Shown here one piece after another: positions 4,129 to 21,726 of a stretch of 64,000 bases of DNA (the stretch's first letter is position 1; each line of letters opens with the position of its first letter). Origin of the DNA: an uncultured Bacilli bacterium. GTDB lineage: Bacteria; Bacillota_I; Bacilli_A; RF39; UBA660. The DNA is taken from assembly GCA_963931685.1 (NCBI GenBank), contig OZ007038.1:810940-874939 (forward strand), in the 5' to 3' direction. The position numbers and the translations under genes were made by a program. The notes under the pieces were generated by a model, which was not told the DNA's origin, searched no databases, and was given only the letters and a program-made list of their open reading frames with translations.

Positions 4129-5787
4129 TTATCTAGTTCTTCCTTTTGAATTTTCTTGGTTTGCTTTAGCAGCATACTCAGCTGCAACTTGTTCTTTTGC
4201 TTCATCAAAAGTAAGGTTATTTTCTAACATTCTCTGAAATGCTTCTTGCCCAATTTTTGCTCTTGTTTCAGGGTCAAATTCCATATTGGAGTCGTTTTTA
4301 TTTGAATTTACTATTGGTGATGGCTCCCATTTGGCCTCTGCATTTCCTTTATTATCTATAGTAATAGTTCCTGGATAATTTGGGTCAGTTGAAGCAAAAA
4401 TTGAAACTGAATTTGAATCATCAAAATGGTCAAGTTCTTGCATTAAAGAATCTTTTGAATTAGAAGTTTCTTTTGCTGAAGATGTCTGTGGTTCTTCTTT
4501 AGTTTCACTATTTTCTTCAGTGCTATTACTACCGTATACATTCTTGTTGATATCATTCATCATTTTGTCAACTTGGATATCAGGTTCAGTTTTAACAGCA
4601 GACTCTTCTTTAGTTTCACTATTTTCTTCAGTGCTATTACTACCGTATACATTCTTATTGATATCATTCATTATTTTGTCAACCTGAGTGTCAATTTCAG
4701 TTTTAACTGCTGATTCTTCTTTAGCTTTTGCTCTTTCTTTAGCACGCTCATCAATACCTGAAATTTTTTCATTAGCAGTATTAATAATATCACTGATGGC
4801 TTTAATGCCTACCAAGTCAGCTTTTTCTTGAATTTGTGCAAGTGATTCTGTAGTTACTTTTAATTTTGAATTTAATGTTCTATTTTTGCTTCTTGCTGTT
4901 TCTAGTTTTTCATTAAGACTATCTACTTCTTTTTGACGTTCATCGATTGCAGCTTGAACATCGGCTTGGCGTTTTTGCTCAGCTTGTGTCATTTCTTCTT
5001 TATGTTTTTTCTTTATTTCAGAAATTTCTTTTGCCTTTACTTGTTTAGCTTTTTTATCATTAAACTGCGCCTCTGTAAGTAGAGTTCTAAATTGATTTAC
5101 ATCAGCAACTTTAGCTAAATCTTTAGCAACGCTATCTAAAACATCAGCATCATATTTATTTATTTTATAATTCCAGAAATAAGCGTATTTATAATCTTTA
5201 TATGTTGCAAATTCTGTTAAATCTTCTAAATTCTTTTTCTCTTTTTTAGGTTTTTCTTCTACTTTTACTGGTAATTCAACTTCTTCTGCTTTTGCTGGTT
5301 CATTTTTAGTTTCTTCTAAATTCGCTCTATTTTCAGCAGCTTTTTTTAATACTTCAGTAAGGCTTTTTCCTTTTACAATTGTTTTATCTTCTTTATCTTT
5401 AGTTTCTTTTTGTTCTTTTACTTCCTCTGCATTATTTTTGTCGGTTTTTTTCACTTGTCCTTTTTTAATTGTATCTTCTGCCACATATTTATTTACTTTT
5501 TCCTCTACTCGTTCACTAAATGTTTTTTCTTTTACTTCTTGGTTTCGTTTTTCTGTTTCATCTTCTTTACCTTTAGTTTTTTCTTTTTTCGCTGTTTCTT
5601 TATGAAGTTTAGCTAGAGCAAAAATTGCACCTGGAATATATGGCACTGTTTTTACACCTTCAGCAATTTTATTTAAGAAACTAAAGACTTTTTTTAACAT
5701 TTTATTAGTGATTTTAACTTTTTTCTCTTTAAACTCATTATTTTCAGTTACTGACTCTACATCTAGCAATTTAATTTCTTTTGCCAT
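4129..5787 (-). CDS. Lys/Glu-rich coiled-coil protein of unknown function with an internal 37-aa tandem duplication
   Basis: Long ORF. The preferred start is ATG 5787 (MAKEIKLL) behind GAGGAG, rather than the track start at 5817, which overlaps the upstream gene. Composition is highly charged and low-complexity. Confidence 0.6.
   Translation of the reverse strand: MAKEIKLLDVESVTENNEFKEKKVKITNKMLKKVFSFLNKIAEGVKTVPYIPGAIFALAKLHKETAKKEKTKGKEDETEKRNQEVKEKTFSERVEEKVNKYVAEDTIKKGQVKKTDKNNAEEVKEQKETKDKEDKTIVKGKSLTEVLKKAAENRANLEETKNEPAKAEEVELPVKVEEKPKKEKKNLEDLTEFATYKDYKYAYFWNYKINKYDADVLDSVAKDLAKVADVNQFRTLLTEAQFNDKKAKQVKAKEISEIKKKHKEEMTQAEQKRQADVQAAIDERQKEVDSLNEKLETARSKNRTLNSKLKVTTESLAQIQEKADLVGIKAISDIINTANEKISGIDERAKERAKAKEESAVKTEIDTQVDKIMNDINKNVYGSNSTEENSETKEESAVKTEPDIQVDKMMNDINKNVYGSNSTEENSETKEEPQTSSAKETSNSKDSLMQELDHFDDSNSVSIFASTDPNYPGTITIDNKGNAEAKWEPSPIVNSNKNDSNMEFDPETRAKIGQEAFQRMLENNLTFDEAKEQVAAEYAAKANQENSKGRTR
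4494..4715 (-). repeat. 2 x 111-bp in-frame tandem repeat inside the coiled-coil ORF
   Basis: Units start at 4494 and 4605. They encode EESAVKTE(I/P)D(T/I)QVDK(I/M)MNDINKNVYGSNSTEENSETK twice with only a few substitutions. Confidence 0.9.
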
Positions 5788-5791
5788 TCTA

Positions 5792-6055
5792 TCACTCCTC
5801 ATTCCTAATAATTTCACGCATTACTTCTTTTACATCTTTCCATTCATCATCTGAAATTGTATTTAATTCATATCCTTTATCTTTTTCTTTTAATTCAGCT
5901 GCATTAATAGTAATCATTTCTTGATCACTTTTACGTCCTATAGTATAAAGAATATATTTTTTTCCAGTTTTTTCTAATTCAAAGCATAGTAATACTTCAG
6001 CTTCCACTTCTTCTCCGTTGGATTTTTTAACTTTAATTTTTTGTAATTTTTCCAT
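5792..6055 (-). CDS. DUF1292-like small acidic protein
   Basis: 87 aa. The pattern (GEEVEAEVLLCFELEKTGKKYILYT ... ELKEKDKGYEL ... DDEW) resembles the DUF1292 family. Confidence 0.5.
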   Translation of the reverse strand: MEKLQKIKVKKSNGEEVEAEVLLCFELEKTGKKYILYTIGRKSDQEMITINAAELKEKDKGYELNTISDDEWKDVKEVMREIIRNEE

Positions 6056-7434: not shown

Positions 7435-7734
7435 TTAATCACATTTATGATATTTCCTAATCAAGTCTGCCTCTTTCTTATATCCTCTTTTTTCTAATTC
7501 TTTTACAAATATTGGCCATGGAGGAATATTACTCATATATGGTTCCCCGGGTCCATTATAGGCTCCTCCACTTGGACCTGTGTATAATCCACCACCCGGG
7601 CCTGTATATAATCCGCCACCGGGACCTGTGTATGCTCCACCACCGGGGCCTGTATATAATCCGCCACCGGGACCTGTGTATAATCCGCCACCCGGGCCTG
7701 TATAATTATTTCTAGGCCATTTATTAATTTCCAT
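7435..7734 (-). CDS. small protein with six to seven YTGPGGG(L/A) repeats and a basic/acidic C-terminal tail
   Basis: Preferred start is ATG 7734 (MEINKW), 9 nt after AGGAGG and 22 nt after the Fic gene stop. No signal peptide or TM is visible. Confidence 0.65.
7546..7704 (-). repeat. 24-nt in-frame tandem repeat (about 6.6 units) encoding YTGPGGG(L/A)
   Basis: Units read directly: YTGPGGGL x2, [16 protein letters not shown] x2, [13 protein letters not shown]. This is a locally GC-rich patch in an AT-rich genome. Confidence 0.9.
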
Positions 7735-7756
7735 TAATCTCTTCCTCCTTATCAAG

Positions 7757-9120
7757 TTATTCTTCATCTATCTCATCTATAAATAAATATTGGTGTAATT
7801 CAATCATAGTGTGAATTATTCTTTTCTCAATAAACATTATGAATGGTACTGGATTTTCTTCTGAATCCATTTTTGATAATGCATCATAATATTCTTTTCT
7901 GCATTTTTGATCAATGTATATTGGTGGAATTTTTTTCTTACTTAATAACCAATTTAATAAAGCTCTTGATATTCGGCCATTTCCATCTCCAAAAGGATGA
8001 ATAACGAGAAATTTATATGTGAAATATGCAACTTGCTCTATATATTCTCCAACATCATAATTATCTATATTTTTCATAAAAAATTGTAGTTCTTTATCAA
8101 CTTCATTAATTCTATCATTTATTTCATAATATGGTACAGGTTCTGTTGTTCCGTTGCTTAATAATGCTGTTACATTTCTATATTTTCCATTTTCTTCTGG
8201 ATATGGCACATATTTAAATAATAATGAGTGCAGGTGACCACATTTTTTTAATGAAATTTTATCCTTTGTACTAAGTACGTACTTCTGCAGCTCTAAATTT
8301 CCGAGTGTCATTACTACTTCTTCACTACAATTTTCAAAAAATTTACTATTTACACCATTGTAATTTAAATCAGCAAGTATATAATTTAATTTATTTCTAT
8401 CAATTATTACGCCTTCAAGTTTATTGTCATTATAGATATAGTTTTGCAAAAATTTTTGACCAGTATATTTATTTATATCTGCTATAAAAAAACTCATTGA
8501 ACTAACTACATTTGATAATAATGTGCTATCGATTGTATTTTCTATTAATTCTCGTTTTTTAATTGATACCCTATATTCACGCATTCTCTGTTTTAAGGCT
8601 TCTTGTGACGTATCTCCATCTATTAGTTTTAAATCATAAGCTATTCTGTTCAAACAAGCATGAAAACTAACGCCGAAGTATTCTGCTATTATTGTGATAC
8701 TTTCAAAGTCAATATATCCATCTTCATTTTTGTATTGTTCACATATAATTTTTAACTCACCTGTAGGCATAAGTAAATAACCAGCAAAGTCATTTGCAAA
8801 TTTTTCTATTTTATTGTTAGCTTTTTTTAAGCACTCAATATAATCAGTTTCCCCTTCTTCTTTGTTTAAATCTTTTATAAAATGACAATACTCATGTGCG
8901 GCTGTAAACCTTTGCCTTTGCAAACTATTATTTGAATTAATACCTACAATTGTACAATTATCTTCATCATTAATAATGATACCATCTAATTTTTCAAAAT
9001 CTTTTAATACAATATGAACTCCAGCATCGCGAAGAATTTTAAATGGATCTATCGGAAAAGTGAGTTTGCCACTTTTTTTAATTTTTCTAATTCATTGTTA
9101 GCTAATTCTTCTGGAGTCAT
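7757..9120 (-). pseudogene. ImmA/IrrE-type zinc metallopeptidase - Fic (AMPylase) fusion; frame broken in an A7 tract
   Basis: HEYCH (HEXXH) follows the typical ..QRQRFTAAHE.. ImmA context, and the canonical Fic motif HPFGDGNGRISR lies near the C-terminus. The operon-positioned ATG (9120, TAATATG coupling to XRE) is in a different frame from the 7757-8923 ORF. The two frames join if the A7 run (plus-strand T7 at 9073-9079) had 8 residues. Confidence 0.6.
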
Positions 9121-9121
9121 A

Positions 9122-9463
9122 TTAACCATCCTTATTTTGTGATTTTAAAATGTTTTTATATTCAATTAAACTAATAATCTCTCTCTTGTCATTTTCACTC
9201 AATTCATTAAAACCTCTAGCAAACGCAATATCATTACTATTTATTGTATGCTCTTCTGCTGTTAATTCGTCCATACTTATATTGTATAATTTTGAAAAAT
9301 TTATTAGTTCTTGCAAATCAATTTTTCTATCCCCTTTTTCAATTCTCAAAATTGCATCTCTTCCTAATCCTAAAATATCTGCAACTTGTTCTTGTGTAAG
9401 CCCCATATATTTTCTAAGCTTTCTTAATCTTTCACCTATCTTTTTATAATCTAATCCTTTCAT
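9122..9463 (-). CDS. XRE-family HTH transcriptional regulator
   Basis: HTH_3 pattern (IGERLRKLRKYMGLTQEQVADILGLGRDAILRIEKGDRK). Preferred start is ATG 9463 (MKGLDYKK). The gene lies directly upstream of the ImmA-Fic gene. Confidence 0.8.
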   Translation of the reverse strand: MKGLDYKKIGERLRKLRKYMGLTQEQVADILGLGRDAILRIEKGDRKIDLQELINFSKLYNISMDELTAEEHTINSNDIAFARGFNELSENDKREIISLIEYKNILKSQNKDG

Positions 9464-9620
9464 ATACAACACCCCAAAATATATAATTTCATTTATATTA
9501 TACACAAAAAAATGTTGGAAATGTCAACATTTTTATTAAAACGAAAAATTAATTCTTTTTCATAGAATTCATCTTTTTATTATTTGTTTAAAACTTTATA
9601 AATAAAAAGCGAGAGCTAAA

Positions 9621-9635
9621 GCTCTCTTCAGGGGG
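9621..9635 (+). repeat. left copy of the 15-bp direct repeat (candidate att core)
   Basis: GCTCTCTTCAGGGGG, identical to 25834-25848. It forms part of a minus-strand terminator hairpin, GAGAGC-TTTA-GCTCTC followed by a T run. Confidence 0.6.
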
Positions 9636-9739
9636 GCCTGCTCTCTTCAGTTAGAAGAGACCAAATTGTGTTAAACCCTTTAAATATGGGCCTTTTTATA
9701 TTGGTACAAACCGTCATTTACCGTGGTTTTTTAGTATTT

Positions 9740-9762
9740 TTGTACCTAAATTGTACCTAAAA
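9740..9762 (+). repeat. 23-nt repeat TTGTACCTAAATTGTACCTAAAA (candidate arm-type recombinase sites), left copy
   Basis: Identical to 25741-25763. It is itself two tandem TTGTACCTAAA units. Extra GTACC(T/A)A copies lie at 9772-9778 and, inverted, at 9703-9709. Confidence 0.6.
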
Positions 9763-9790
9763 AAAGAATTAGTACCTATTATACTAACTC

Positions 9791-10141
9791 TCAAAATGAA
9801 TACTTTTCTCCAAATAATTTACTTTCAATTATACACAATATAGCATACCCTAAAATGAATAGAAATGCTACTAAGTACAGATTAGTTATAAATTTAGTTA
9901 TCATTAAAAATAAACCTGTTAATATTGCATAGTTAAATAAAAAACCAAGGCTACCAATGAATTTTACATCCCCATCATACCATGTACCTGTTAAAAAATA
10001 TGCGAGTGGTATAAGAGCACCTCCGAATATCCAATTAACTATTTCCGCCGTTCCAGGATTCTTAATTAAATTAGTAAATGGATTAGGTATTAAAAATTGT
10101 CTTACTAAATAGCTAATTACTTTAATCAAATGATACAACAT
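9791..10141 (-). CDS. small integral membrane protein, unknown function
   Basis: 116 aa with three to four hydrophobic helices. Confidence 0.5.
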   Translation of the reverse strand: MLYHLIKVISYLVRQFLIPNPFTNLIKNPGTAEIVNWIFGGALIPLAYFLTGTWYDGDVKFIGSLGFLFNYAILTGLFLMITKFITNLYLVAFLFILGYAILCIIESKLFGEKYSF

Positions 10142-10228
10142 ATCACCCCCTAAATTTAATAAATATTATACCACAGTATTTCTATAATTTAACTAAAAAA
10201 AGTCTGGAGCAATTCCAGACTCATCTTA

Positions 10229-10924
10229 TCAATCAATCTTATTTGGATTTAGCAATTCATTAATTGATTCATTATATTCTTCCCATTTTGGACAATATTT
10301 ATCCATAAGTAACTTAAAATTATTATTGTGTTTTCTTTCAATTAAATGAATTAACTCATGAATTATTACATATTTAATCTCAGTATCTTTCTTTTTGGCT
10401 AAATCTAAATTAAATATTATTTCTTTCTTATCAGTATTACAACTGCCCCATTTGTTTTTCATTTTTCTAATAGAATAATTTTTAGCTTTAACTCCAATTA
10501 GTTCTTCTAGTACTGGCATAAACTTTTCTATTTTAACTTGTAAATTATCTTTGTAAAATGAATTTAATAGACGCTCTTTATTATCAATACTTGAAGATTT
10601 TCTAACATACATTGCAATTATATTATTTTTTTCTATTTTAACACTTGGAACATTTGAATCATAAACTCTTAAAATATAACGTTTTCCATTTAAATAATGA
10701 TCTTCTCCAGAAACATATTCTCTTTTAGTAATACGATTTTGTTCTTCATATTTTTTTAGTTGATTCTTTATCCACTCGTCTTTTGAAATGATCATTGCTT
10801 TTATTTTCGATATATCCATATTTTTAGGAACTGACGCCTTAATAGATAAATCAGGATATACCTTAAGATTTATGTTTTTTACATCTTTTCTATTTATTTC
10901 AATATTATAGTTATTTATTAACAT
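10229..10924 (-). CDS. DUF45/YgjP-like zinc metallohydrolase (M48-like), R-M associated
   Basis: 231 aa with HELIHLIERKHN (HEXXH). It lies 6 nt downstream of hsdR, and DUF45 genes commonly accompany type I R-M loci. Confidence 0.65.
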   Translation of the reverse strand: MLINNYNIEINRKDVKNINLKVYPDLSIKASVPKNMDISKIKAMIISKDEWIKNQLKKYEEQNRITKREYVSGEDHYLNGKRYILRVYDSNVPSVKIEKNNIIAMYVRKSSSIDNKERLLNSFYKDNLQVKIEKFMPVLEELIGVKAKNYSIRKMKNKWGSCNTDKKEIIFNLDLAKKKDTEIKYVIIHELIHLIERKHNNNFKLLMDKYCPKWEEYNESINELLNPNKID

Positions 10925-10930
10925 TTATAC

Positions 10931-13900
10931 CTAACACCCTCTTGTATTTTTCCATAAATTAAAGATTTCATCAGCTTTTGCCTCATCATCTAATTGCATT
11001 AATAATGATAGCTTTAATTCTTTTTGTTTCATCTTAGAATCCATGAAGTCTTTAGGTACATTATTAATTAAAAATTCATAAAGATCAAGTGTTTTATTTT
11101 CATCACTATCTAATATGTCATATAATCCTCTTAATCTTGTGTTATGTATAGAATTAGGATAATGACCACTTAATTCTGGATTTTTAACTTTCTTAACAAG
11201 TTCTATTAACTTTTCTAAATATGCCTGATAATCAAGATTTTGTTCTTTCTTTAGCTCTATTAACTCACTCAACAATTCTGACATTTTACTATAATATCTA
11301 GGATTTTTATTTTGATTGTTAATTATTGTTGAAGCAATATTATTTTCAATTGCTAAAGCCATTGCTTTTTTATTTTTTCTAAATCCTTTAGGCATAATTT
11401 CAGTTGCCTTATCAAGTCCACTAGCTACTATTACATCTAGCAATGTGGCCTCATCTAATTTATATTGCAATTCAGAAGTATCTGCTCCAATATAATTATC
11501 AATCATATATCTCATTGAACTATCATAATTTTTTAGTTCAATATAATCACCTGCAGATTTCATCACTTCATCTCTAGCATTATTGTAATAATTAACATCA
11601 CTCTTTATTTGTTGAATTTCTTCTCTAGAGTATCCTGCCTTAGTCATCTCATCTGCTATATTTGTATAAGCTATTACCAAATCTGAAACTGCATCATAAA
11701 ATTCAATTCTTTTAGATTCAGTATTTTTTAAATTTTCTTCTCTTGACTCACTTATTGTATCAAGATCTTGGGCAACAAAGTAATGCAAAAATTCAAGAGT
11801 TCCTTTGGGATTCTCAATAGGTTCACAAATAGATTTTATTTTCTTTAAAGCATTATTTAATCTATCACTACAGAACTTTAATCTATCTTTTAGTAACCCC
11901 GTAATATCTTCTTTATCAAAATTATCAAATGCACCATTAGTATAATTTTCTACTGCTCCCTCAATATTTTCAAATAAATCTTTATAATCAACTATGTAAC
12001 CTAAATCTTTACCTGCATCAAGTCTATTTACACGACATATAGCTTGAAATAACCCGTGGTCTTGCATTTTCTTATCAATGTATAAATAAGTTGCAGAAGG
12101 TGCGTCAAAGCCTGTTAAAAGTCTATCTACTACTATTAATACTTTCATTTCAGAAGGACTATTAATAAACTTATGAATTGCATCATCTTCAAAACATTGA
12201 GTATAATCATCGTGCTCATTATCGCTTCTTAATTTAGGATATTTATTTTTATCCCACATTTTATCATACACTTCGTAAATTTTTTGTTTATCAGATATTG
12301 TAAATTCACCATCTTCTTCGCCTTTAATATCTGTTACGTATGGTGAATATGAAGATATAATTGCACATTTATCAAAACCTTTTGTTTGAAAGATTTCCCA
12401 ATATCGACATGCTTCATAAATAGAACTTGCTACTAGCATTGCAGTTCCTTTATTCTGTTCAAGTCTTGGGATTTTTTCAAAATCAAATATTATATCCTTT
12501 ACTATTTCTTCCAATCTACTACCTGAGCTAGTAATGCTTTGAAGATTGCCCCATCTTTCTTTCAATTTTTGTTTAGCATATTCATTTAAACCTGCAGTTT
12601 TCGCTTCAAACCACTCATCAATTTTTGCTTTATTATTAATTCTTTGTTCTACGTTTCTTGATTCATAGCATAAATCAACAACTATTCCATCCTTTACTGC
12701 TTGATCAAATTTATATGTATGAATATACTTCCCAAATTTTTCTAATGTTGTAGCTTTTGATTTTTTCATTAATGGAGTTCCAGTAAAACCGAAAAATGTT
12801 GCATTAGGTAACAAGCGTTTCATTTCATCATGTAACAATCCAGCCTGAGTCCTATGACATTCATCTACGAATACAAACAAATCTCCTTTAGCAGAAAACT
12901 CTTCGTTTTTATATTTAGTTAATTCTTTAACATACTCAGAATAGTTTTTGTCTAATTCCTCATCAACCGAACTACCTACTTTATGTATTAAAGAGCAAAT
13001 TAATCTGCCATTAGAATAATCATTTAATGATTTTAATAGATCACTACTGCTGGTTGCTCTATGAATCCTTTCACCTGTACTTTCAAAAACATCTTTTATT
13101 TGTTTATCTAATTCTTTTCTATCAGTAAATATTAATACTCTTGAATTATCAATATGAGATAAAATCCATTTTGCAATTAAGACCATCGATAATGATTTCC
13201 CTGATCCTTGAGTATGCCATATTATTCCACCTTCATGCTTTAAAGCGAATTCTCTTGCGTTTGTTACTCCAAAATACTGATTATATCTTGGGACTTTTTT
13301 AATACCACCGTCAAATACGATGAAATTATCTAATAAATCAATTAATCTTTCTTTTTCAAATAATGATGGTATTTGTTGATCTATTAATAATTCATTTTTG
13401 TTAATAAGATCATTCACTTTTTCATGTAACTTACCGATAGCTTTATAATCTTCTATCCATGGTAGATAATATTTTGCTGGAGTTAACGTTGTTGCATACT
13501 TTAAGCCTTCAGAATCATTTCCCGCTACTATAAATTGAATTGTTGTAAAAAATCTTTCTATGAATATTGGCTTTTGATTATCAAGGTTTTGTCTTATTCC
13601 TTCATTTATAGATACAGTACTTCTTTTTAATTCTATTACACCAATTGCAATACCATTTATATATATAACTATATCTGGCCTTTTCTCATTTTGACCTCTA
13701 TAAGTTACTTCTTCAGCAACATAAAAATCATTATTGTTAAAATCTTCATAATCTATAAAATATACCTTTTCCTCTTTTTGGCCAATGTATAATGTAATTC
13801 CTTTACCATATTTTAATAATTCATATACCTCTTTATTAACTTCATATAACGATTTTGTTTCATTATGAGCAACTTTTTTTAACTCAGCTATTGCTTTACT

Positions 13901-14083
13901 AGCTAATTCTTCAGGATATTTTTTTATTAAAAATTTTAGTAATAATTCTTCCTCAATATTAGAATTATTTTCTCTATCTTCAAAATTACCAAGATAAGTA
14001 TATTTAAGTTTTTCTTCAAACACTTTGTGTAATAATCTATCTTGAGTTTTAATTTCTAATTCATTTACACTACCACTACTCAT
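10931..14083 (-). CDS. hsdR: type I restriction enzyme R subunit
   Basis: 1050 aa. Helicase motif I is HTQGSGKSLSMV and motif II is VFVDECHRTQ. It overlaps hsdS. Confidence 0.9.
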   Translation of the reverse strand: MSSGSVNELEIKTQDRLLHKVFEEKLKYTYLGNFEDRENNSNIEEELLLKFLIKKYPEELASKAIAELKKVAHNETKSLYEVNKEVYELLKYGKGITLYIGQKEEKVYFIDYEDFNNNDFYVAEEVTYRGQNEKRPDIVIYINGIAIGVIELKRSTVSINEGIRQNLDNQKPIFIERFFTTIQFIVAGNDSEGLKYATTLTPAKYYLPWIEDYKAIGKLHEKVNDLINKNELLIDQQIPSLFEKERLIDLLDNFIVFDGGIKKVPRYNQYFGVTNAREFALKHEGGIIWHTQGSGKSLSMVLIAKWILSHIDNSRVLIFTDRKELDKQIKDVFESTGERIHRATSSSDLLKSLNDYSNGRLICSLIHKVGSSVDEELDKNYSEYVKELTKYKNEEFSAKGDLFVFVDECHRTQAGLLHDEMKRLLPNATFFGFTGTPLMKKSKATTLEKFGKYIHTYKFDQAVKDGIVVDLCYESRNVEQRINNKAKIDEWFEAKTAGLNEYAKQKLKERWGNLQSITSSGSRLEEIVKDIIFDFEKIPRLEQNKGTAMLVASSIYEACRYWEIFQTKGFDKCAIISSYSPYVTDIKGEEDGEFTISDKQKIYEVYDKMWDKNKYPKLRSDNEHDDYTQCFEDDAIHKFINSPSEMKVLIVVDRLLTGFDAPSATYLYIDKKMQDHGLFQAICRVNRLDAGKDLGYIVDYKDLFENIEGAVENYTNGAFDNFDKEDITGLLKDRLKFCSDRLNNALKKIKSICEPIENPKGTLEFLHYFVAQDLDTISESREENLKNTESKRIEFYDAVSDLVIAYTNIADEMTKAGYSREEIQQIKSDVNYYNNARDEVMKSAGDYIELKNYDSSMRYMIDNYIGADTSELQYKLDEATLLDVIVASGLDKATEIMPKGFRKNKKAMALAIENNIASTIINNQNKNPRYYSKMSELLSELIELKKEQNLDYQAYLEKLIELVKKVKNPELSGHYPNSIHNTRLRGLYDILDSDENKTLDLYEFLINNVPKDFMDSKMKQKELKLSLLMQLDDEAKADEIFNLWKNTRGC

Positions 14084-15269
14084 AACTTAACCTCACTTTA
14101 CCAGTTAACAAATCTTCCATCATTCCATCTTTTATCTTTTTATACTTAGATAGCTTTTCATTTAATAACTCTATCTCATTATCCATATTCATTAAAATAT
14201 TTGCATATTCTATTTGCTCATTAGTATCTGAAGGGACGCAAATTGAATATTCCATAAATCTCTTTTTTGGCAAATTATATCTTGTTGATCCTTGTGCTAA
14301 TTTCTTTATTATATTTCTTCCATATTTACTTCTATAAAAATATGATAAATATAAATTATTAATCGAATGGTCAGTAATTCTAAATCCAAAACAAAAACTA
14401 TTTAAATATAGCTCATCTATATCAAAATTAATTGTAGAACAAAGAGCAACCTCTTCTGGAGTTTCAGATGATGTGTTAAAAAACAAGTCACCTTTTTGTA
14501 CTTTTTTTTGAACATTGTTGCAATAAAATTTTTCAAATTGTTGTTCCTTTACAATTGGATTACCCAAAACATTTAAAAAAGTAATATATTTTTTGTTACC
14601 ATCTTTAAAATTTTCCGATTTCATTCCACTTAATCCATTATATGCATATCCTATTTTATTCAAACAAATTGTCTTTAACTCACTTTTAAAATTATTTTTA
14701 TCAAATAATATATTCATTGTTTGTTTCTTAATTTTTTCTTTTTTTAGTATTAAAAACTGCAATGAATTAATTAAATTATCTATGTTAATAAAAGTTTTTG
14801 CTATTGCACGTTGTTCGTTTAAATTCTCTGGATAATTAAATGGTATTGAATAAAAATCATCATGATTTAAATCTGGTATAGTACTTGCTCCAGCCTTTTC
14901 TAATATTAAATTTTGTATACTTTTTAGATTTAAATAATATACTAAATAATCTTTATCTATTTTAGATCTATCAAAATTTATTCTAAAAAAATTATTGTGA
15001 AAAACTCCAGATACTCCTGTTACTACACGTCCTGTATTTCCTGTCCTTGTCATTAAAACGTCATTGGGGTTACAAACAACTGAATCATTATGATCTTTAT
15101 CATTTATATATTCATCATCACCAACACTATTTAAATGTTGAATTGTTATGTATATCTTATTGTTTTTTCTTTTATGCTTATCTCTTTTTTCAATGTTAAT
15201 TTGAAAGCCCTGATTAACATAACAAATATCCTTCATTGTTTTATATTGCCAGCCAGACCTTTCTAACAT
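14076..15269 (-). CDS. hsdS: type I R-M specificity subunit
   Basis: 397 aa with a two-TRD architecture and conserved spacers (..LLTGKVRL.. C-terminus). Flanked by, and overlapping, hsdM and hsdR. Confidence 0.85.
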   Translation of the reverse strand: MLERSGWQYKTMKDICYVNQGFQINIEKRDKHKRKNNKIYITIQHLNSVGDDEYINDKDHNDSVVCNPNDVLMTRTGNTGRVVTGVSGVFHNNFFRINFDRSKIDKDYLVYYLNLKSIQNLILEKAGASTIPDLNHDDFYSIPFNYPENLNEQRAIAKTFINIDNLINSLQFLILKKEKIKKQTMNILFDKNNFKSELKTICLNKIGYAYNGLSGMKSENFKDGNKKYITFLNVLGNPIVKEQQFEKFYCNNVQKKVQKGDLFFNTSSETPEEVALCSTINFDIDELYLNSFCFGFRITDHSINNLYLSYFYRSKYGRNIIKKLAQGSTRYNLPKKRFMEYSICVPSDTNEQIEYANILMNMDNEIELLNEKLSKYKKIKDGMMEDLLTGKVRLSYE

Positions 15270-17656
15270 TTAAACCCCATCCTTTCCAAATCTTTTAAAA
15301 CTAAAGATTCTAAACCAGATGCTTTTTCAGAAAGTTGATTTAATGTTTCATCATAGTTTTCATATTCGTTTATTATTTTATTTGATAAATCGTAAATTAA
15401 ATCTTCATACTTATCATCAAATTTTCTTTCAATAGATTTAAACCATTTTTTATTTATTATTAAATCTTTTGATGTTTCTTCATCTAATGAATTATACTTA
15501 TCAATTATTAATTTATTCAATGCCTCTTGATGTGTTCTAATATCCTTTTTTAACTCTTTTTGGGATAATAGAATATCAAGTGTTTTATTTAATGTAGATA
15601 TATTATCTTCTGTTTCTTCTTTAATTTTTTCTTTAATTAATTTTTCATTGATCTTTTCATCATCTTTAAAAATTTCTTCATCACCAGTATTTTCTTGTAT
15701 TATTGAATCAAGTTTTTGACATACATCATTTAAATTATCATTTAATTTTTCGATTTTATCATTTTTCTCTTTAAAATATTCTTCAATGACTATTTCTTTT
15801 GGTAACAGATCTGAATCAAACTCATTCTTCTTAATCTTACCATTTTTATCTTGAGCAAAAACTATTTTAGGGATCCAACCATTTTCTATAATTAAATAAA
15901 AATCATCTTTTAAAGTATCATTAAAATATTCCATTAAATATTCATATGCTTCATATTTATCAATCAATTCATCCTTATCAAAAATATTTAAAATTTTATC
16001 AGATAATGTATTAATTATTTGTTTTACATTGCTATTTAAATTTGTTGAATATAGTAAATCCTTATTTTCTTGCTCCCAAATATTTATCTTTTTATTTAAA
16101 GCTACAGAATAATTAATAAATTCTTCAGAGTTCGTTATTTCTTCATTAAGATTATCCTTATCAACCATTAAGTCAAGATAGCCAACTTTTTTATTGTTGT
16201 TAAATAATTTGTTTCTTAATTTTGGTGCAATATTCCAATACTTAGATAATCTATCAATATCTGCTTTGGGAATACCACCAAGTAAATGAGCTCTTATATC
16301 TTGAATGACTTCATCATCAAAAGAATCAATATATCTTGGAATATTTAGATTATACTCCTCCTTTTCAATATCTTTCATAGAAACACTTTTTGAATAATGT
16401 TCTATTTCGATTTTATTTAAGTATGTATCAGTTATCTTCTTAATATCTTCTTCCCTTAATTTATTTTTATTACCATCTTTAACAAAATACTTACTAGCGT
16501 CTATCATAAATATATTTTTTCTATTACTAGCTTCTTTTTTATCTAAAACAATTATACAAGCGGGAATCCCGGTACCATAAAACAAGTTAGCTGGCAAGCC
16601 AATAATTCCTTCTATAAAACCACTTTTTAATAAATTTTTCCTAATTAATTCTTCTTGCCCACTTCTAAATAAAACTCCATGTGGAAGAATTATAGCACCT
16701 CGGCCATTAACTGAATTCATGGATTTTAACATATGGAGTAAAAAAGCATAATCACCACAATTGTCTGGAGGAGTTCCAAAACCTGTAAATCTATCAAAAT
16801 TATTTTCTGCAGTTAAATCTGTATTCCATTTTTTCACTGAAAATGGTGGATTGGCAACGCAAAAGTCAAATGATCTAATTTTTCTATTTTCTAAAAATTG
16901 AGGATTTGTTAATGTATTACCAGATTTTATTTGAGCGGTAGCATTTCCATGTAAAAACATATTCATAACGCAAAGGCCTGCAGTATTGGTATCTTTTTCT
17001 TGACCATATAAATAAACTTTTGAATTATCAACCGCTTCATTTCCAGCTTTTATTAAAAGTGAACCGGAACCACAAGCCATATCATATACTTCAATTGGAC
17101 TCTTTTTAGATTCTGAAATTTTTAATATTTTTGCCATTATTCTTGAAACTTCAGATGGTGTATAAAATTGTCCTTTACTTTTACCTGCTTCTGAAGCAAA
17201 TTGTTTCATTAGATATTCGTACGCATCACCCAAAACATCATTATCATCCGCTCTATTATTGCTAAAGTCTAATTCTGGATCTTGAAATATTTCAACTAAA
17301 CCAGTTAAAGCATCTATCATATCCTTACCTTTGCCAAGTTTATTTTCATCGTTAAAATCTACAACATCTATAACATTTTGCAAATCGTTCTCTTCAGCAA
17401 TTTTTGCTAATATTTTATTAAATTCTTCTCCAATATTTTTCTTACCTTTTAATGAAATCATTGTGTTAAAATTTGCATCAGCTGGTACATCTATTAAAGA
17501 ATCTTTTTTGTTGTAATACTTATCTGTAATAACCTTCATAAATAGAACGATTAAAACATAATCTTTATATTGTGTTGCATCCATTCCACCTTTGCTTCTT
17601 AAAGTATTACAACTATCCCATATTTTACTATATAAAACACTTTTCTTTACTGCCAT
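15263..17656 (-). CDS. hsdM: type I R-M N6-adenine DNA methyltransferase subunit with a long C-terminal coiled-coil extension
   Basis: 797 aa. It has a SAM-binding region (DMACGSGSLL) and the catalytic motif NPPFS. About 300 extra Lys/Glu/Asp-rich residues follow the methylase core. Confidence 0.85.
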   Translation of the reverse strand: MAVKKSVLYSKIWDSCNTLRSKGGMDATQYKDYVLIVLFMKVITDKYYNKKDSLIDVPADANFNTMISLKGKKNIGEEFNKILAKIAEENDLQNVIDVVDFNDENKLGKGKDMIDALTGLVEIFQDPELDFSNNRADDNDVLGDAYEYLMKQFASEAGKSKGQFYTPSEVSRIMAKILKISESKKSPIEVYDMACGSGSLLIKAGNEAVDNSKVYLYGQEKDTNTAGLCVMNMFLHGNATAQIKSGNTLTNPQFLENRKIRSFDFCVANPPFSVKKWNTDLTAENNFDRFTGFGTPPDNCGDYAFLLHMLKSMNSVNGRGAIILPHGVLFRSGQEELIRKNLLKSGFIEGIIGLPANLFYGTGIPACIIVLDKKEASNRKNIFMIDASKYFVKDGNKNKLREEDIKKITDTYLNKIEIEHYSKSVSMKDIEKEEYNLNIPRYIDSFDDEVIQDIRAHLLGGIPKADIDRLSKYWNIAPKLRNKLFNNNKKVGYLDLMVDKDNLNEEITNSEEFINYSVALNKKINIWEQENKDLLYSTNLNSNVKQIINTLSDKILNIFDKDELIDKYEAYEYLMEYFNDTLKDDFYLIIENGWIPKIVFAQDKNGKIKKNEFDSDLLPKEIVIEEYFKEKNDKIEKLNDNLNDVCQKLDSIIQENTGDEEIFKDDEKINEKLIKEKIKEETEDNISTLNKTLDILLSQKELKKDIRTHQEALNKLIIDKYNSLDEETSKDLIINKKWFKSIERKFDDKYEDLIYDLSNKIINEYENYDETLNQLSEKASGLESLVLKDLERMGFKC

Positions 17657-17877
17657 TATTTACTACCTCTCTTTACCACTACTTGTTCTTTATCATTATC
17701 TGGTGATACTTTGCAATCTTTCCTGTTTGAAATTTTAATATTATTTTTTTCATCCAAGTAAAAGATTACAGAATCTCCTTCTTCTATATTCAATGTTTCT
17801 CGAACAATCTTCGGAATAGTAATTTGTCCTTTTGATGTCAACTTTGCTGAAGCTAACAATTCATTTTTTTCCTTCAT
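17656..17877 (-). CDS. AbrB/MazE/SpoVT-type DNA-binding protein
   Basis: 73 aa with LTSKGQITIPKIVRETLNIEEGDSVIFY, the swapped-hairpin AbrB-like motif. Its stop overlaps the hsdM start codon. Confidence 0.7.
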   Translation of the reverse strand: MKEKNELLASAKLTSKGQITIPKIVRETLNIEEGDSVIFYLDEKNNIKISNRKDCKVSPDNDKEQVVVKRGSK

Positions 17878-18005
17878 ATCATTTCTCCTTACTTTCCTTA
17901 CTATAATAAGTATAACATAATTTGTTGATTTTTAAAATAAATTGACATAAATTGTTGCAAAAAATCAATTTTTAAGTGATTAATACAAGGAATTGGAGGA
18001 ATTGT

Positions 18006-18332
18006 ATGATTAGAAAATGTACTGATGAGGATATTTCTGATGAAGAATTAGAGAAAGTAATTAATCCTTTTTATGATAATTATCATGAGTATATTATTAC
18101 TTACATTATGCCTGAGGTAATTGCATTTTATATAGCTAGTTCTTATAGTAGGAATGCTATGTGGGAAGCTACGTTTTATCAGCATTATAATTCAGCTAAG
18201 GATATATTTAATGTTAGTGATGATGAAGATTATGATAAGGTTAAGGCTGAAGTAATTAAACTATTAAGAATGAAGTATTCTTTAGAAATTATTAGTGAAA
18301 ATCCATTAGATTTTAAAAAAATTGAGTATTAG
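18006..18332 (+). CDS. hypothetical protein
   Basis: The ORF has GGAGG 8 nt before ATG 18006 (MIRKCTDED). No motif recognised. Confidence 0.4.
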   Translation: MIRKCTDEDISDEELEKVINPFYDNYHEYIITYIMPEVIAFYIASSYSRNAMWEATFYQHYNSAKDIFNVSDDEDYDKVKAEVIKLLRMKYSLEIISENPLDFKKIEY

Positions 18333-18422
18333 TTTTTGTTCTAATACTCTTTTTGTTTTCCAAAAAACTCACGGAAAATTTATTTTTGCGTGAATGTATG
18401 TGGGCTGTGGGTGTGGAAAAAA

Positions 18423-18794
18423 TTATATTTTTGGATTACCTACCCTCCGGGGGACCTCTAATAATTCATATAATTCTTCTTTTGTTATTATTCCTTTTTC
18501 TGCTTGTTCATGATGCATTCTACATAGTGTAATTAAATTATCACTATCAAGTCTTTTATTATAATCTTTTGCTATTGGTATGATGTGATGTACTTGTAAG
18601 TTATCATATGTATATACATTATCTTTTAAACATAACTGACATAAATACTTATCTCTTTTCTTTATTTGGTTTCTTTTCTTAATCCAAGCATTAGTATTTC
18701 TAAACTTACTTTCTATAGTATTCTTCTTATATGACCTTTTACACATTTTATCTTCTGGATGTATCCTACCACATACTGAACATGATCTATACAT
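18423..18794 (-). CDS. HNH endonuclease
   Basis: 123 aa with Cys pairs (CSVCGR, CQLC) and HHIIPIAKDYNKRLDSDNLITLCRMHH. Confidence 0.8.
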   Translation of the reverse strand: MYRSCSVCGRIHPEDKMCKRSYKKNTIESKFRNTNAWIKKRNQIKKRDKYLCQLCLKDNVYTYDNLQVHHIIPIAKDYNKRLDSDNLITLCRMHHEQAEKGIITKEELYELLEVPRRVGNPKI

Positions 18795-19222
18795 TATTCT
18801 AAATATTTCTTGTCATTACCTTTTAATTTATTAGATGATTTATTAATATACTTTTGCATATCTTCTAATAAAAATCCTGGTATGATTCCTCTTTCTATCC
18901 ATCTAATTGATTTATCATAGTTTCTTTCTTCTTGCTCTGGTGATAATGGTACTATTCCTAATTTGAAGTATCCATCTTTTTTCATTTCTACTAAAATAGA
19001 TAAATAATAATTATTCTTAACTACTTTAGTTTTATCTAAGATATCATGTATAGTTGGCATATAAGTTCTTTCTTTACAAAGTTCTATAATTGCTTTTTTA
19101 AATACTTCTGGTTCTATGTCTTGTAACATTTCATACCATATTGAAATATCATCATTACTAATTACTTTTTGATAACAAGATGATAGTATTTTGATTCCTT
19201 CTACAAAATCTATTTTATCCAT
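18794..19222 (-). CDS. phage-type replication accessory protein (possible helicase-loader-like), hypothetical
   Basis: 142 aa, translationally coupled between the replisome-organizer gene and the HNH gene. The assignment rests on context only. Confidence 0.3.
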   Translation of the reverse strand: MDKIDFVEGIKILSSCYQKVISNDDISIWYEMLQDIEPEVFKKAIIELCKERTYMPTIHDILDKTKVVKNNYYLSILVEMKKDGYFKLGIVPLSPEQEERNYDKSIRWIERGIIPGFLLEDMQKYINKSSNKLKGNDKKYLE

Positions 19223-20036
19223 TTTGTTTATCTCTCATTTCCTTAGCTCTTCTAATTTCTTCTAAAGATATATCTTGAATAGTTTTAGCTTTAGCTTGTT
19301 GATGTAAGTATCTTTCAAATTTAGGGCCAAATAATGTTTCAGGTGTAAGGTATGGTTTCATTTTAGGATTATTAATCCACTCGCTTGTTTTCTTATCTAT
19401 AACTATTTTAATATCATTAATTGTATATTTTTTTAATATATTAGCTATTAATTTCTTATACTCATCTATTAATATAAAATTAGAATTAGTTTTATAGTTT
19501 AAATAGTCTATTATGTCTTGATACTCTTTTTTATTTATTTCTATTTCTTTTTTATTAGTTATAATTTCTAAATTATGTTTATTAGTTTTATTATCTATAT
19601 ATACCTTACTATTTGACTTACATTTATTCTTACATCTTGGCTTACTTTTGTCAGGATTTTTAATTCTATATTCTCTCATATTCATAGCACCTACTGTAGT
19701 TTGATTAGTAAGTACTAATGCATCTTCTATATAATATTTATTTTCTCTCTTTTCCATCATTCCTGTATCTAAAAAATAATCAATAGCATCGTTTATTAGT
19801 TTTTCTGAATGATTTGTTTCTACTGCTAATTCTTTTATAGAATATGGAATTCTTTTAGATCCTACTTTTTTTATTAAGTAACCATCTTTATTTATTGTTT
19901 TAAATATTAGTTTAAAATATAAAATTATTTTCTCATATCCATTAGGTTCATTTTGTAAGAATTTTAATATATCATTATCAAAAAAGTTTGATTTAAGCAT
20001 AAAGTAATAATATTTTTCTTTATTATAAGTTCCCAT
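19215..20036 (-). CDS. phage replisome organizer / DnaD-like replication protein
   Basis: 273 aa. The N-terminus YYYFMLKSNFFDNDILKFL...EKIILYFKL resembles phage replisome-organizer N-domains. The C-terminus IIDYLNYKTNSNF...TPETLFGPKFERYL resembles the conserved phage C-terminal (DnaD-like) domain. Confidence 0.65.
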   Translation of the reverse strand: MGTYNKEKYYYFMLKSNFFDNDILKFLQNEPNGYEKIILYFKLIFKTINKDGYLIKKVGSKRIPYSIKELAVETNHSEKLINDAIDYFLDTGMMEKRENKYYIEDALVLTNQTTVGAMNMREYRIKNPDKSKPRCKNKCKSNSKVYIDNKTNKHNLEIITNKKEIEINKKEYQDIIDYLNYKTNSNFILIDEYKKLIANILKKYTINDIKIVIDKKTSEWINNPKMKPYLTPETLFGPKFERYLHQQAKAKTIQDISLEEIRRAKEMRDKQNG

Positions 20037-20286
20037 GTTTAGAATTATTAATTGATACTAAAAAATCTACATTGATTTTAAAATAATCAATTACTTTCTC
20101 CATTGGTACTAAGTTATTAGGTAGTTTAAATCCACTTGATATAATTTCTTCTGATATTTTATTTTTAATATCTCTTGCTTTATTTCTTCCCACAGCACCT
20201 ATTTTCATTATATCTTGTACAGTAGCCCACTGACTATTTAGTATTTCTAGCATTTCATCTGCCGATAATATTGTTTTACTTTTCAT
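20023..20286 (-). CDS. hypothetical small phage-like protein
   Basis: 87 aa, lying between the cro-like and replication genes. No motif recognised. Confidence 0.4.
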   Translation of the reverse strand: MKSKTILSADEMLEILNSQWATVQDIMKIGAVGRNKARDIKNKISEEIISSGFKLPNNLVPMEKVIDYFKINVDFLVSINNSKHGNL

Positions 20287-20310
20287 TAAAAAATCTCCTC
20301 TCTGTTATAA

Positions 20311-20640
20311 TTATTTAAGTTTACCGAACTTATTATTTTCATTTTTCTTATTTAAAATTTTTTTACTATTTTCAGAATCTAACATTTCTTTAATTCTTTT
20401 CATTTCTCGATCTAATTTCTTTTGTATTCTTTTCTCTTCTTCCTGTTTATCATGAACAATAAAAGAGTACCAGTTATCAACATCATATACTTCTTGCATT
20501 CTTTTTAAAAGGTTATTATTTGGTATTTTAGTAAAGTTTTCAATTGATCTTAATTCTGATGTTTTTATGTTTAATAACTTTGCGGCTTCTGTAATAGAAA
20601 GACCTTTATTTACCCTAAATGCTTTAGGTGTTGCTTGCAT
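20311..20640 (-). CDS. Cro/XRE-like HTH regulator
   Basis: 109 aa with an HTH (LSITEAAKLLNIKTSELRSIEN). Divergent from the cI-like repressor. Confidence 0.65.
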   Translation of the reverse strand: MQATPKAFRVNKGLSITEAAKLLNIKTSELRSIENFTKIPNNNLLKRMQEVYDVDNWYSFIVHDKQEEEKRIQKKLDREMKRIKEMLDSENSKKILNKKNENNKFGKLK

Positions 20641-20749
20641 TGTATCCTCCTTTCTATTTTAATCATACACTTTTTATAATTGTTTGTAAGCGACCTTTTA
20701 TGCCCAATTCATTTTTTTCACTTTCCCTTCTATTATAAGAATACTACCT

Positions 20750-20825
20750 GATTACGAAAACGTAAATACAAATTACGATTTTTTTCATAATTTTACTTGT
20801 ATGTTTTCGTATTTTAAGTTATACT
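20750..20825. promoter_or_regulatory. divergent promoter/operator region with three TACGAAAAC-type repeats
   Basis: TTACGAAAACGTAA (20752-20765), ATTACGATTTT (20772-20782) and an inverted TGTTTTCGTATT (20812-20823) lie between the cro-like and cI-like genes. Confidence 0.45.
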
Positions 20826-20845
20826 TATTTTAGAGGAGGATGCCT

Positions 20846-21574: not shown

Positions 21575-21726
21575 AAAAAGACCACTGCTGGAACAGTGAT
21601 CGAGTGAAAAATCCCTAATTTAAAGTTCGGTAAACTTAAATAATTATAACAAAGTATAATTTTGGAGATTTCTCGTATTTAATTATATCACCAATTAGGG
21701 ATTTCTACAAGAAAGTTGGTGAAATA

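Follow-up and report, generated by a model that had tools for sequence, protein, structure and literature searches.

Within the 64,000-nucleotide stretch of contig OZ007038.1 analyzed here (positions 810,940 to 874,939, from an uncultured Bacilli bacterium; hereafter the window), three genes follow one another on the minus strand between positions 7435 and 9463. They encode an XRE-type regulator, a fusion of an ImmA/IrrE-type (M78) peptidase with a C-terminal Fic domain, and a small protein made mostly of YTGPGGG repeats (Table 1). An earlier reading made from the letters of the sequence, hereafter the original prediction, had described them as a three-gene operon. The list of open reading frames (ORFs) and the sequence itself confirmed three co-oriented genes on this strand, but the middle one proved to be disrupted in the window copy by a frameshift. 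Judged by sequence comparison, the features of this cassette are far beyond chance: both the fusion protein and the repeat protein have hundreds of homologs, and their arrangement recurs.

The stop codon of the XRE gene and the next ATG form the junction TAA-T-ATG, the ATG at 9120 lying one base past the stop, and the original prediction had called the two coupled. The junction is present, but this ATG encodes MTPEELANNELEKLKKVANSLFR followed by a stop, that is, 24 codons only (frame translation of 9125-8900), and the M78-Fic frame (...IKKSGKLTFPIDPFKILRDAGV...) is open at -1 relative to it. Because the two frames meet at a run of seven adenines (A7), the mechanical ORF list contains a late-starting middle ORF, 8923..7757, which opens only at MQRQRF (MQRQRFTAAHEYCH). 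The description of the second gene as one ORF had therefore been obtained by reading across the frameshift and does not hold. Adding one A to the run restored a continuous M78-Fic protein of 454 amino acids, 99% identical to an intact protein of 465 amino acids (P0001) encoded on a gut metagenome contig (L001), and the DNA encoding P0001 indeed has A8 at the junction tract where the window has A7.

Comparison with L001 revealed further lesions in the window copy. Codon 455 of the fusion gene is TAA in the window and GAA in L001, which costs the protein its last 11 codons, the acidic tail, and the overlap with the repeat gene. In the intact form, the Fic ORF reads through the apparent ribosome-binding site (RBS) and overlaps the repeat-gene ATG by 11 nt. 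Thus, the positions given earlier for the repeat gene, 22 nt downstream and behind AGGAGG, are true, but the gap is a product of the nonsense lesion, and both gap and RBS are coding sequence in L001. Additionally, the repeat gene of the window is 120 bp shorter, 5 of the 11 repeats of L001 being absent, and the promoter spacer carries two extra T residues at 9511-9512. Between the two strains, the flanks differ by about 0.5% at the DNA level, while four events (A7, TAA, TT, and 120 bp) fall within the cassette. The XRE gene is 100% identical, and the downstream genes of L001 (CsoR-like, B3_4, DUF1292, NfeD, Band_7, and YabP/YqfD) match those of the window.

The A8>A7 frameshift falls at codons 14 to 16 of the fusion gene. 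Among the loci compared, A8 was found in L001, L009, L010, L090, and L096, and A7 was confined to the window and a second data set (L002/L003), in which it is accompanied by an internal deletion in the Fic domain and by a change of the repeat-gene start from ATG to ATA. In most lineages of the fusion family, the tract is interrupted (AAGAAAAAGT), A8 being restricted to a few lineages. Overall, disrupted fusion copies were recovered 5 times among 38 (37 related loci plus the window), each time at a different site: besides the window and L002/L003, the gene is frameshifted at residue 223 in L027 (5001-6388) and at residue 62 in L028 (3619-5006), and it is truncated to 133 amino acids in L031 (5001-5402), where it lies beside a housekeeping ATPase. 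In one further locus (L015, 6370-6807), it is the repeat gene that is split by a frameshift. From these sequence differences, the window cassette is probably switched off or decaying, and for this genome we recommend annotating its central gene either as a pseudogene with a frameshift or as a phase-OFF allele.

We then examined the restored fusion protein. The peptidase and Fic calls of the original prediction were borne out, since Pfam placed Peptidase_M78 at residues 33-160 (1.5e-16) and Fic at residues 291-393 (6e-13); we set the domain bounds at about 20-160 for M78, 160-218 for a helical linker, and 219-454 for Fic. Among the PADLOC models, capP matched residues 9-161 (2e-26; profile positions 7-151 of 242), and the Fic half matched PDC-S04 (8e-19) and SoFic (2.2e-16). 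An AlphaFold2 model built on 109 homologs had a predicted local distance difference test score (pLDDT) of 88.8 and a predicted template modeling (TM) score (pTM) of 0.86. In a Foldseek search against the PDB, the Fic half of this model retrieved FICD/HYPE (E = 1.5e-10), Caenorhabditis elegans Fic-1, BT_2513, CdFic, and SoFic, with a TM score, normalized to the target, of 0.73 to both CdFic and BT_2513. The N-terminal part retrieved Thauera CapP (7t5t; E = 8.6e-6; root mean square deviation of 3.9 over 182 columns).

Across the 109 sequences, H76, E77, H80, C97, E106, D232, N233, and E236 are invariant. The zinc site, HExxH plus a downstream glutamate, is thus present (H76, E77, H80, and E106), E106 aligning with E129 of CapP, the third ligand. 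C97 lies in a predicted strand (residues 93-98) between HExxH and E106, and phmmer puts C113 of CapP at T92, five residues away. The Fic motif, HPFGDGNGRISR in the window, is complete and canonical as had been claimed: it reads HPFxDGNGRxSR, it fits the HxFx(D/E)GNGRxxR pattern, and in the 109 sequences H375, P376, F377, G380, N381, S385, and R386 are invariant, while D379, G382, and R383 are found in at least 90%. The original prediction had also seen in NKLEG an imperfect likeness of the class II autoinhibitory motif. This assignment stands, since the family profile, compared with PDB sequences, aligned "nyiyydnkleg" with "HHIYHTVAIEG" of FICD, and E236 therefore corresponds to the autoinhibitory E234 of FICD. 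The motif (D232-N-K-L-E236-G) belongs to the same chain as the Fic core and precedes it on the N-terminal side.

The XRE protein matched HTH_3 in Pfam (E = 2.9e-13) and the PADLOC capH model (1.5e-12) over residues 6-107, nearly its full length, and its C-terminal tail harbors a conserved AFARGF..LS..DK.EI. Its gene directly precedes the fusion gene in 37 of 37 loci, an obligatory linkage. For the window and 18 other loci, reaching down to 53% protein identity, we aligned the 120 nt located 5' of the XRE start. An 8-5-8 palindrome (AATGTTGA-CTTTT-TCAACATT) lies over the -35 box and is nearly invariant in the 19 loci. In the window, it reads ATGTTGACATTTCCAACAT (9530..9512, minus strand) and includes the -35 box TTGACA at 9527..9522, the -10 box TATAAT being located at 9502..9497. 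Both ATGTTGA..CAACA and TATAAT vary little or not at all over the 19 upstream regions. The left arm holds the -35 box, TTGAC(T/A), and TATAAT follows 17 nt on in the 18 other loci; in the window, this spacer is 19 nt long because of its T7 run (plus-strand A-run 9506-9512). The palindrome occurs once in the 64-kb window. Further upstream, a terminator-like hairpin closes the preceding gene, so that the cassette begins its own transcription unit. A palindrome on the promoter together with a terminator boundary of its own is, as far as sequence can tell, the anatomy of a self-repressed transcription unit.

To see how far this fusion extends, we searched for it with two methods. A word-indexed search with the fusion protein returned 330 protein clusters at E <= 1e-5; the best 120 of these 330 shared at least 50% identity with it, and the complete ones among them were 449 to 469 amino acids long. 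An exhaustive search of 1.84 billion protein representatives gave 62 at E <= 1e-30, and among the representatives listed, approximately 35 to 40 were full-length fusions at 27 to 52% identity. In GTDB, taking one genome per species, full-length copies were found in gut-derived bins labeled uncultured Bacilli, Mollicutes, Clostridia, and Erysipelotrichaceae. The flanks of the cassette vary from locus to locus and consist mostly of housekeeping genes, such as those for Pol III alpha, tRNA synthetases, and cell-wall proteins; the 108 genes flanking 20 loci included 4 integrase and 2 type I methylase genes. By its gene content and surroundings, the cassette behaves like an autonomous module of two or three genes, as toxin-antitoxin and small defense modules do. 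A phage origin was rejected, since IMG/VR contained no such fusion and GenBank phages gave only partial, single-domain matches. Separately, a distant full-length M78-Fic protein (29% identity) was found on a phage-like plasmid of Bacillus pumilus (NZ_CP154914; L166, 3555-5290). Its gene lies between holin/lysin genes and an integrase gene and overlaps a 111-amino-acid gene ahead of it, without a repeat gene, and a second, separate ImmA/IrrE gene adjoins the integrase gene. Databases label the fusion "ImmA/IrrE family metallo-endopeptidase" or "Fic family protein" and the repeat protein "hypothetical." In the literature searched, we found no description of an M78-Fic fusion, in agreement with the original prediction, which had not recognized the architecture; the same holds for the repeat protein, whose repeat and C-terminal motif strings appear in no paper of that literature.

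The third protein was correctly described earlier as 99 amino acids of YTGPGGG(L/A)-type repeats. It starts with WPRNNY, continues with six (L/A)YTGPGGG units, and ends with a two-helix module (...LIRKY); Tandem Repeats Finder identified the corresponding DNA repeat at 7562-7704, with a 24-bp unit in 5.2 copies. No match was found in Pfam, PADLOC, NCBIfam, or PHROGs. However, the protein has 863 homologous clusters, which share an N-terminal W-x-R-(N/D)-x-Y, from 1 to more than 10 units of [L/M/A][Y/S/F][T/S]GPGGG, and a C-terminal PYxSNIPPWPxF(V/I)xELExxG...A.LIR. Over 735 units, the first variable position is Y in 78%, S in 16%, and F in 4%, and the second is T in 82% and S in 7%. AlphaFold2 gave the protein an overall pLDDT of 53, with the repeats below 40 (disordered) and the last 30 residues forming two helices at 82 to 86. 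The N-terminal WP is predicted to pair with residues 67-68, so that the array would loop out from a closed base. In a subgroup on Gram-negative-like contigs (P0127, P0128, P0132, and P0196), the proteins carry an N-terminal signal peptide and, flanking the array, one conserved cysteine per side, in the motifs ..CPxGTW.. and ..YC(T/S)N... These flanking cysteines fit the closure of a loop, and the sequences suggest an exported, disulfide-closed form in this subgroup.

The survey of neighborhoods proposed with the original prediction found the three-gene arrangement conserved, the repeat gene lying directly 3' of the fusion gene in 18 of 25 loci and being absent from 7, where only loci found through the fusion protein alone are counted. 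In the fusion-protein tree, the repeat gene occurs on both deep branches, with no fewer than 4 losses, and it is therefore ancestral yet dispensable. Outside the cassette, the family is found in very different company. Its neighbors include dynamin-like LeoBC proteins and a NERD helicase (L082), a reverse transcriptase (L083), a genuine RmrA-type HTH-M78 protein (RmrA, 3.7e-119) directly followed by the repeat gene (L085), and AAA_21 and RloB proteins with a kinase, the only one seen (L086). Tn916-type DUF961/FtsK genes lie beside it in L111 to L113, L147, and pJIR4150, and family genes are found near insertion sequence elements on Enterococcus faecium plasmids and at the integrase-proximal end of P2-like prophages. 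A query made of such a prophage end (integrase plus repeat gene) matched 113 of 5,426 complete Escherichia coli genomes, and in 17 of these the match covered 80% or more of the query; in E. coli 300709, for example, the repeat gene (L174, 10200-10514) follows a CI/AAA ATPase/DUF4276/int block in a P2-like prophage. Another complete member, with 133 amino acids and 13 repeats (L167, 208-609), shares the 2,365-bp Weissella cibaria plasmid pJY33 with rep and no other ORF; the deposited annotation of this plasmid begins the gene at an internal Met (343).

We also looked for a constant partner of the repeat protein, but two Pfam surveys and one PADLOC survey (77 and 150 neighbor genes) revealed no dominant family. 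The neighbors nevertheless have a defense or mobile-element flavor (AAA_15/21, SMC_N, LmuB, SspH, Abi_C, integrases, and DUF961/FtsK). Most members lie 70 to 400 nt from the preceding gene, and tight coupling was seen only in the M78-Fic clade and in L083, where the coupled 392-amino-acid protein was considered as a relative of M78-Fic and discarded for want of any similarity. No informative fusions came out of a profile search with the C-terminal module alone: all the proteins recovered were short family members, and many had been called from an internal Met. Since the family also occurs, mostly by itself, on plasmids, integrative and conjugative elements, P2-like prophages, and defense islands, it is not Fic-dependent as a whole. 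Its distribution marks it as a promiscuous gene of mobile elements and defense islands that was recruited by the cassette, rather than a dedicated Fic partner.

How might such a cassette work? CapP consists of a peptidase, a helix-turn-helix (HTH) domain, and a GAF domain, and binds single-stranded DNA between peptidase and GAF, upon which CapH is cut (Lau et al. 2022, bioRxiv 10.1101/2022.04.27.489752; Calloji et al. 2026, 10.64898/2026.05.16.725639). By analogy, we lean towards the view that the three genes constitute a self-repressed, protease-triggered Fic cassette of toxin or defense type, built like ImmR/ImmA and CapH/CapP and inactive or phase-OFF in the window. This view brings together the two domains with their conserved catalytic, zinc, and inhibitory residues, the operator on the promoter, the obligatory XRE linkage, the autonomy of the module, and the recurrent disruption of its central gene. 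XRE dimers would occupy the palindrome and allow hardly any expression of the operon. The peptidase would be activated by a signal of stress or infection, which for CapP is single-stranded DNA, and would cut the XRE protein. The operon would then be derepressed, the inhibitory helix displaced, and the Fic domain would AMPylate a cellular target, leading to growth arrest, an output of toxin or abortive-infection type. The third gene would have been recruited from the repeat family of mobile elements and defense islands, translationally coupled but dispensable, and is a candidate modulator, acceptor, or cargo. Because the Fic domain sits where the GAF half of the CapP ligand groove would be, one could even speculate that a single movement induced by a ligand might open the peptidase site together with the inhibitory helix of the Fic domain.

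Several points weigh against this proposal. We infer XRE cleavage, the signal, the activity of the Fic domain, its target, and a phage phenotype by comparison with known systems. GAF, which forms half of the single-stranded DNA groove of CapP, is absent, so the present family may respond to another trigger. In typical capH/capP loci, the pair is divergent from an immune operon distinct from it, while here the genes are co-directional and the putative effector is part of the peptidase chain. The inhibitory motif opens with an aspartate, invariant in the 109 sequences, instead of serine or threonine, and de-AMPylation may be the main activity of a Fic protein that keeps its inhibitory glutamate, as it is for dimeric FICD. 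Furthermore, most loci lie outside recognizable defense islands, the 2.9 million viral contigs of IMG/VR contain no M78-Fic relative, and ordinary gene decay, instead of toxicity, could account for the disrupted copies.

The pairing of a Fic domain with a protein full of Tyr and Thr raises another scenario, in which the two form an enzyme-substrate or decoy pair, the fused Fic domain AMPylating the Tyr/Thr residues of the repeat protein, which would be a sponge, a timer, or the true output. Several observations fit it: in the M78-Fic clade, the start of the repeat gene and the end of the Fic ORF share 11 nt, the Fic/repeat linkage spans the deepest branches of this clade (54 to 100% identity), the repeats are predicted to be disordered and hence accessible, and hydroxyl side chains are kept at both variable positions over the 735 units. 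Nevertheless, we regard it as unlikely. The repeat gene is missing from 7 of 25 otherwise intact cassettes, by at least 4 independent losses; outside the clade, the family has no Fic neighbor and its neighbors are very varied; one member is the sole cargo of a 2.4-kb plasmid; and Phe-type repeats occur (P0154). The pairing on which the original prediction had built its idea of a decoy substrate is kept in 18 of 25 loci, but the family is not Fic-specific and the gene was repeatedly lost.

A Rosmer-like toxin-antitoxin system is, in our estimate, just as unlikely. Here, the HTH and M78 parts would act as antitoxin and repressor, as in RmrA/spr1629, and the toxin would be either the Fic domain fused in cis or the repeat protein. 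ImmA-domain antitoxins pair with many different toxins (Ernits et al. 2023, PMC10440598), which speaks for such an arrangement. RmrA models match both the M78 half (down to 1.5e-10) and the XRE protein (1.9e-8), the NCBIfam model "spr1629 family repressor/antitoxin" matches residues 31-235 of the fusion, and the repeat-family member of L085 directly follows its genuine RmrA-type protein (3.7e-119). However, the spr1629/RmrA scores are far under the family cutoffs (39.9 versus 335 bits), the HTH is a separate protein, and the Fic domain is fused to the supposed antitoxin. The repeat protein is moreover hard to square with a toxin, since its gene stands by itself on plasmids and at the ends of prophages, where no neighbor resembles an antitoxin.

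A bolder variant of the enzyme-substrate idea appears to us quite unlikely. The YTGPGGG protein would be a multisite hydroxyl acceptor, a bacterial counterpart of a CTD-like scaffold, which is AMPylated by the fused Fic domain and whose repeat number sets a threshold or timer for toxin release; the family at large would be a general sponge or modulator of protein-modifying enzymes in conflicts among bacteria, phages, and plasmids, and the system would be turned ON and OFF via homopolymers in the promoter spacer and in the fifth to sixteenth codons.

It is also conceivable, though very doubtful, that the A7 allele is alive, either through phase variation at the A8/A7 and T5/T7 tracts or through -1 ribosomal or transcriptional slippage on A_AAA_AAA. 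Indeed, frame 0 (TTA AAA AAA GTG) presents an X_XXY_YYZ heptamer, on which a -1 slip would give ...LKKSGKLTFP, identical to P0001; the window and L002/L003, which are independent data sets, both have A7; and two homopolymer length changes occurred in the same cassette between near-identical strains. However, no stable stimulatory structure was predicted downstream of A7 (z = +1.07), and the tract is interrupted in most members, so that the recoding site is not conserved; for these two reasons, we rank slippage and phase variation as minor rivals to inactivation. In addition, the A7 copies hold more lesions (the nonsense codon in the window, the internal deletion and lost start codon in L002/L003), and other fusion copies are broken at unrelated sites.

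The cassette borders on a block that resembles an integrated element (9560-22836), located directly upstream of it; synteny with L001 breaks at about 9555. We give next to no credence to the idea that the XRE/M78 genes are the immunity (ImmR/ImmA) module of this element or the C-protein of its type I restriction-modification (R-M) system, although an integrase, CI/Cro-like regulators, a replisome organizer, and the R-M genes lie at about 9.6 to 22.8 kb and the XRE protein weakly matches R-M "Control_protein" models (2e-8): elsewhere the cassette sits among unrelated housekeeping genes, neighborhoods not being conserved, its operator is found only at its own promoter in the window, the element has its own CI/S24 repressor, and the synteny break just upstream of the XRE promoter makes the element a neighbor and not the owner.

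Two other regions of the window deserve mention. Beyond the integrase gene, a 243-amino-acid protein with a C-terminal PemK/MazF toxin domain (23119-23850, minus strand) adjoins a 361-amino-acid HTH protein (23868-24953, minus strand), and from their domains these genes may be another toxin-antitoxin or defense-type pair in the variable region. Downstream of the cassette, the gene for a 562-amino-acid Lys/Glu-rich repetitive protein (ORF 4129-5817, minus strand) differs from that of L001 by a 111-bp (37-amino-acid) tandem duplication at 4576-4686, which is a second repeat-length polymorphism between the two strains.

Table 1. Features of the cassette and of its surroundings in the window
Feature	Position	Strand	Remarks
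XRE/CapH-like repressor gene	9122..9463	minus	113 aa; HTH at residues 10-67 plus C-terminal tail of ~45 aa
M78 (ImmA/CapP-like)-Fic fusion gene	7757..9120	minus	Frameshifted, 11 codons short
99-aa repeat protein gene	7435..7734	minus	ORF and tandem repeat analysis
Promoter/operator region of the cassette	9497..9530	minus	Alignment of 19 upstream regions
Predicted operator of the cassette promoter			AATGTTGACTTTTTCAACATT; XRE target predicted from sequence
A7 homopolymer, junction of the two fusion-gene frames	9073..9079	minus	Frame translations; A8 in intact alleles
Peptidase motif QRQRFTAAHEYCH, HEYCH	8896..8882	minus	Read from sequence
Inhibitory-helix motif DNKLEG	8428..8411	minus	Read from sequence
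Fic motif HPFGDGNGRISR	7999..7964	minus	Read from sequence
Premature TAA of the fusion gene	7759..7757	minus	
AGGAGG (RBS) of the repeat gene	7749..7744	minus	
Terminator-like hairpin and T-run	9611..9626	minus	Closes the upstream gene 9791-10141
116-aa membrane protein	9791-10141		
YgjP-like metallopeptidase	10229-10924		
Complete type I R-M system	hsdM 15263-17656, hsdS 14076-15269, hsdR 10931-14083		
HNH nuclease	18423-18794	minus	
Phage replisome organizer	19215-20036	minus	
Cro-like HTH	20311-20640	minus	
CI-like HTH+S24 repressor	20840-21574	plus	
Tyrosine integrase	21727-22836	plus	
IS66 transposase	28042-29601		

If the protease-triggered Fic cassette that we favor is real, the sensor protease of a CapP/ImmA-type switch would be fused to its effector, an FICD-like AMPylase, in one polypeptide, and a single chain would answer a damage or infection signal with derepression as well as with a post-translational toxin. 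It would provide a compact system of few parts for asking how the autoinhibition of bacterial class II Fic proteins gets relieved, and a candidate defense or toxin module from poorly studied gut Firmicutes. The analysis additionally exposes a large, widespread, and unannotated family of small repeat proteins, the distribution of which suggests a role in mobile-element biology.

We finally compared the cassette with known systems. CapH and CapP are a CBASS-associated repressor and its zinc peptidase. As in CapH/CapP, ImmR/ImmA of ICEBs1, and DdrO/IrrE, an XRE-type repressor gene adjoins a co-oriented M78 gene. The likeness to CapH/CapP goes further, with profile matches to full-length capH and to N-terminal capP, a structural match of the modeled protein to Thauera CapP 7t5t, HExxH with a distal glutamate, and a palindromic operator, predicted from sequence, on the promoter. 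The three-domain build of CapP is nevertheless not retained, capP being matched at 7-151 of 242 only and Fic replacing GAF, and the divergent placement of capH/capP near an immune or mobile operon gives way here to a co-directional cassette that forms its own unit. A cysteine-switch loop over the active site is found in a subset of CapP proteins; the fusion has a conserved cysteine in the strand between HExxH and the glutamate, but the alignment is five residues out of register.

On the effector side, the fusion shares with class II Fic proteins (FICD/HYPE, CdFic, and BT_2513) the Fic fold, HPFxDGNGRxSR, and an inhibitory helix with its glutamate on E234 of FICD. It differs from them in sequence (about 22% identity), in its N-terminal M78 domain, where they have tetratricopeptide (TPR) repeats or nothing, and in a DxxxEG motif instead of (S/T)xxxE(G/N). 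The matches of the Fic half to the models of the stand-alone proteins SoFic and PDC-S04 (2.2e-16 and 8e-19) point to Fic domains used in defense contexts; however, the NCBIfam SoFic equivalog NF046030 scores 31.2 versus 550 bits, and SoFic has neither a peptidase domain nor an XRE partner. With RosmerTA RmrA/spr1629, the cassette has in common a homologous M78 domain and following helical region, and a protease-bearing regulator that guards a toxic activity, which here would be the Fic domain. Unlike RmrA/spr1629, it has a separate HTH gene and a toxin-like domain fused to the protease, and its matches are partial (39.9 versus 335 bits). In the class I systems FicT/FicA and VbhT/VbhA, as here, a Fic domain is checked by an inhibitory glutamate within a small autoregulated cassette. 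Their inhibitory helix is provided by a separate antitoxin, whereas that of the M78-Fic protein lies in cis, and its regulation would be both proteolytic and transcriptional.

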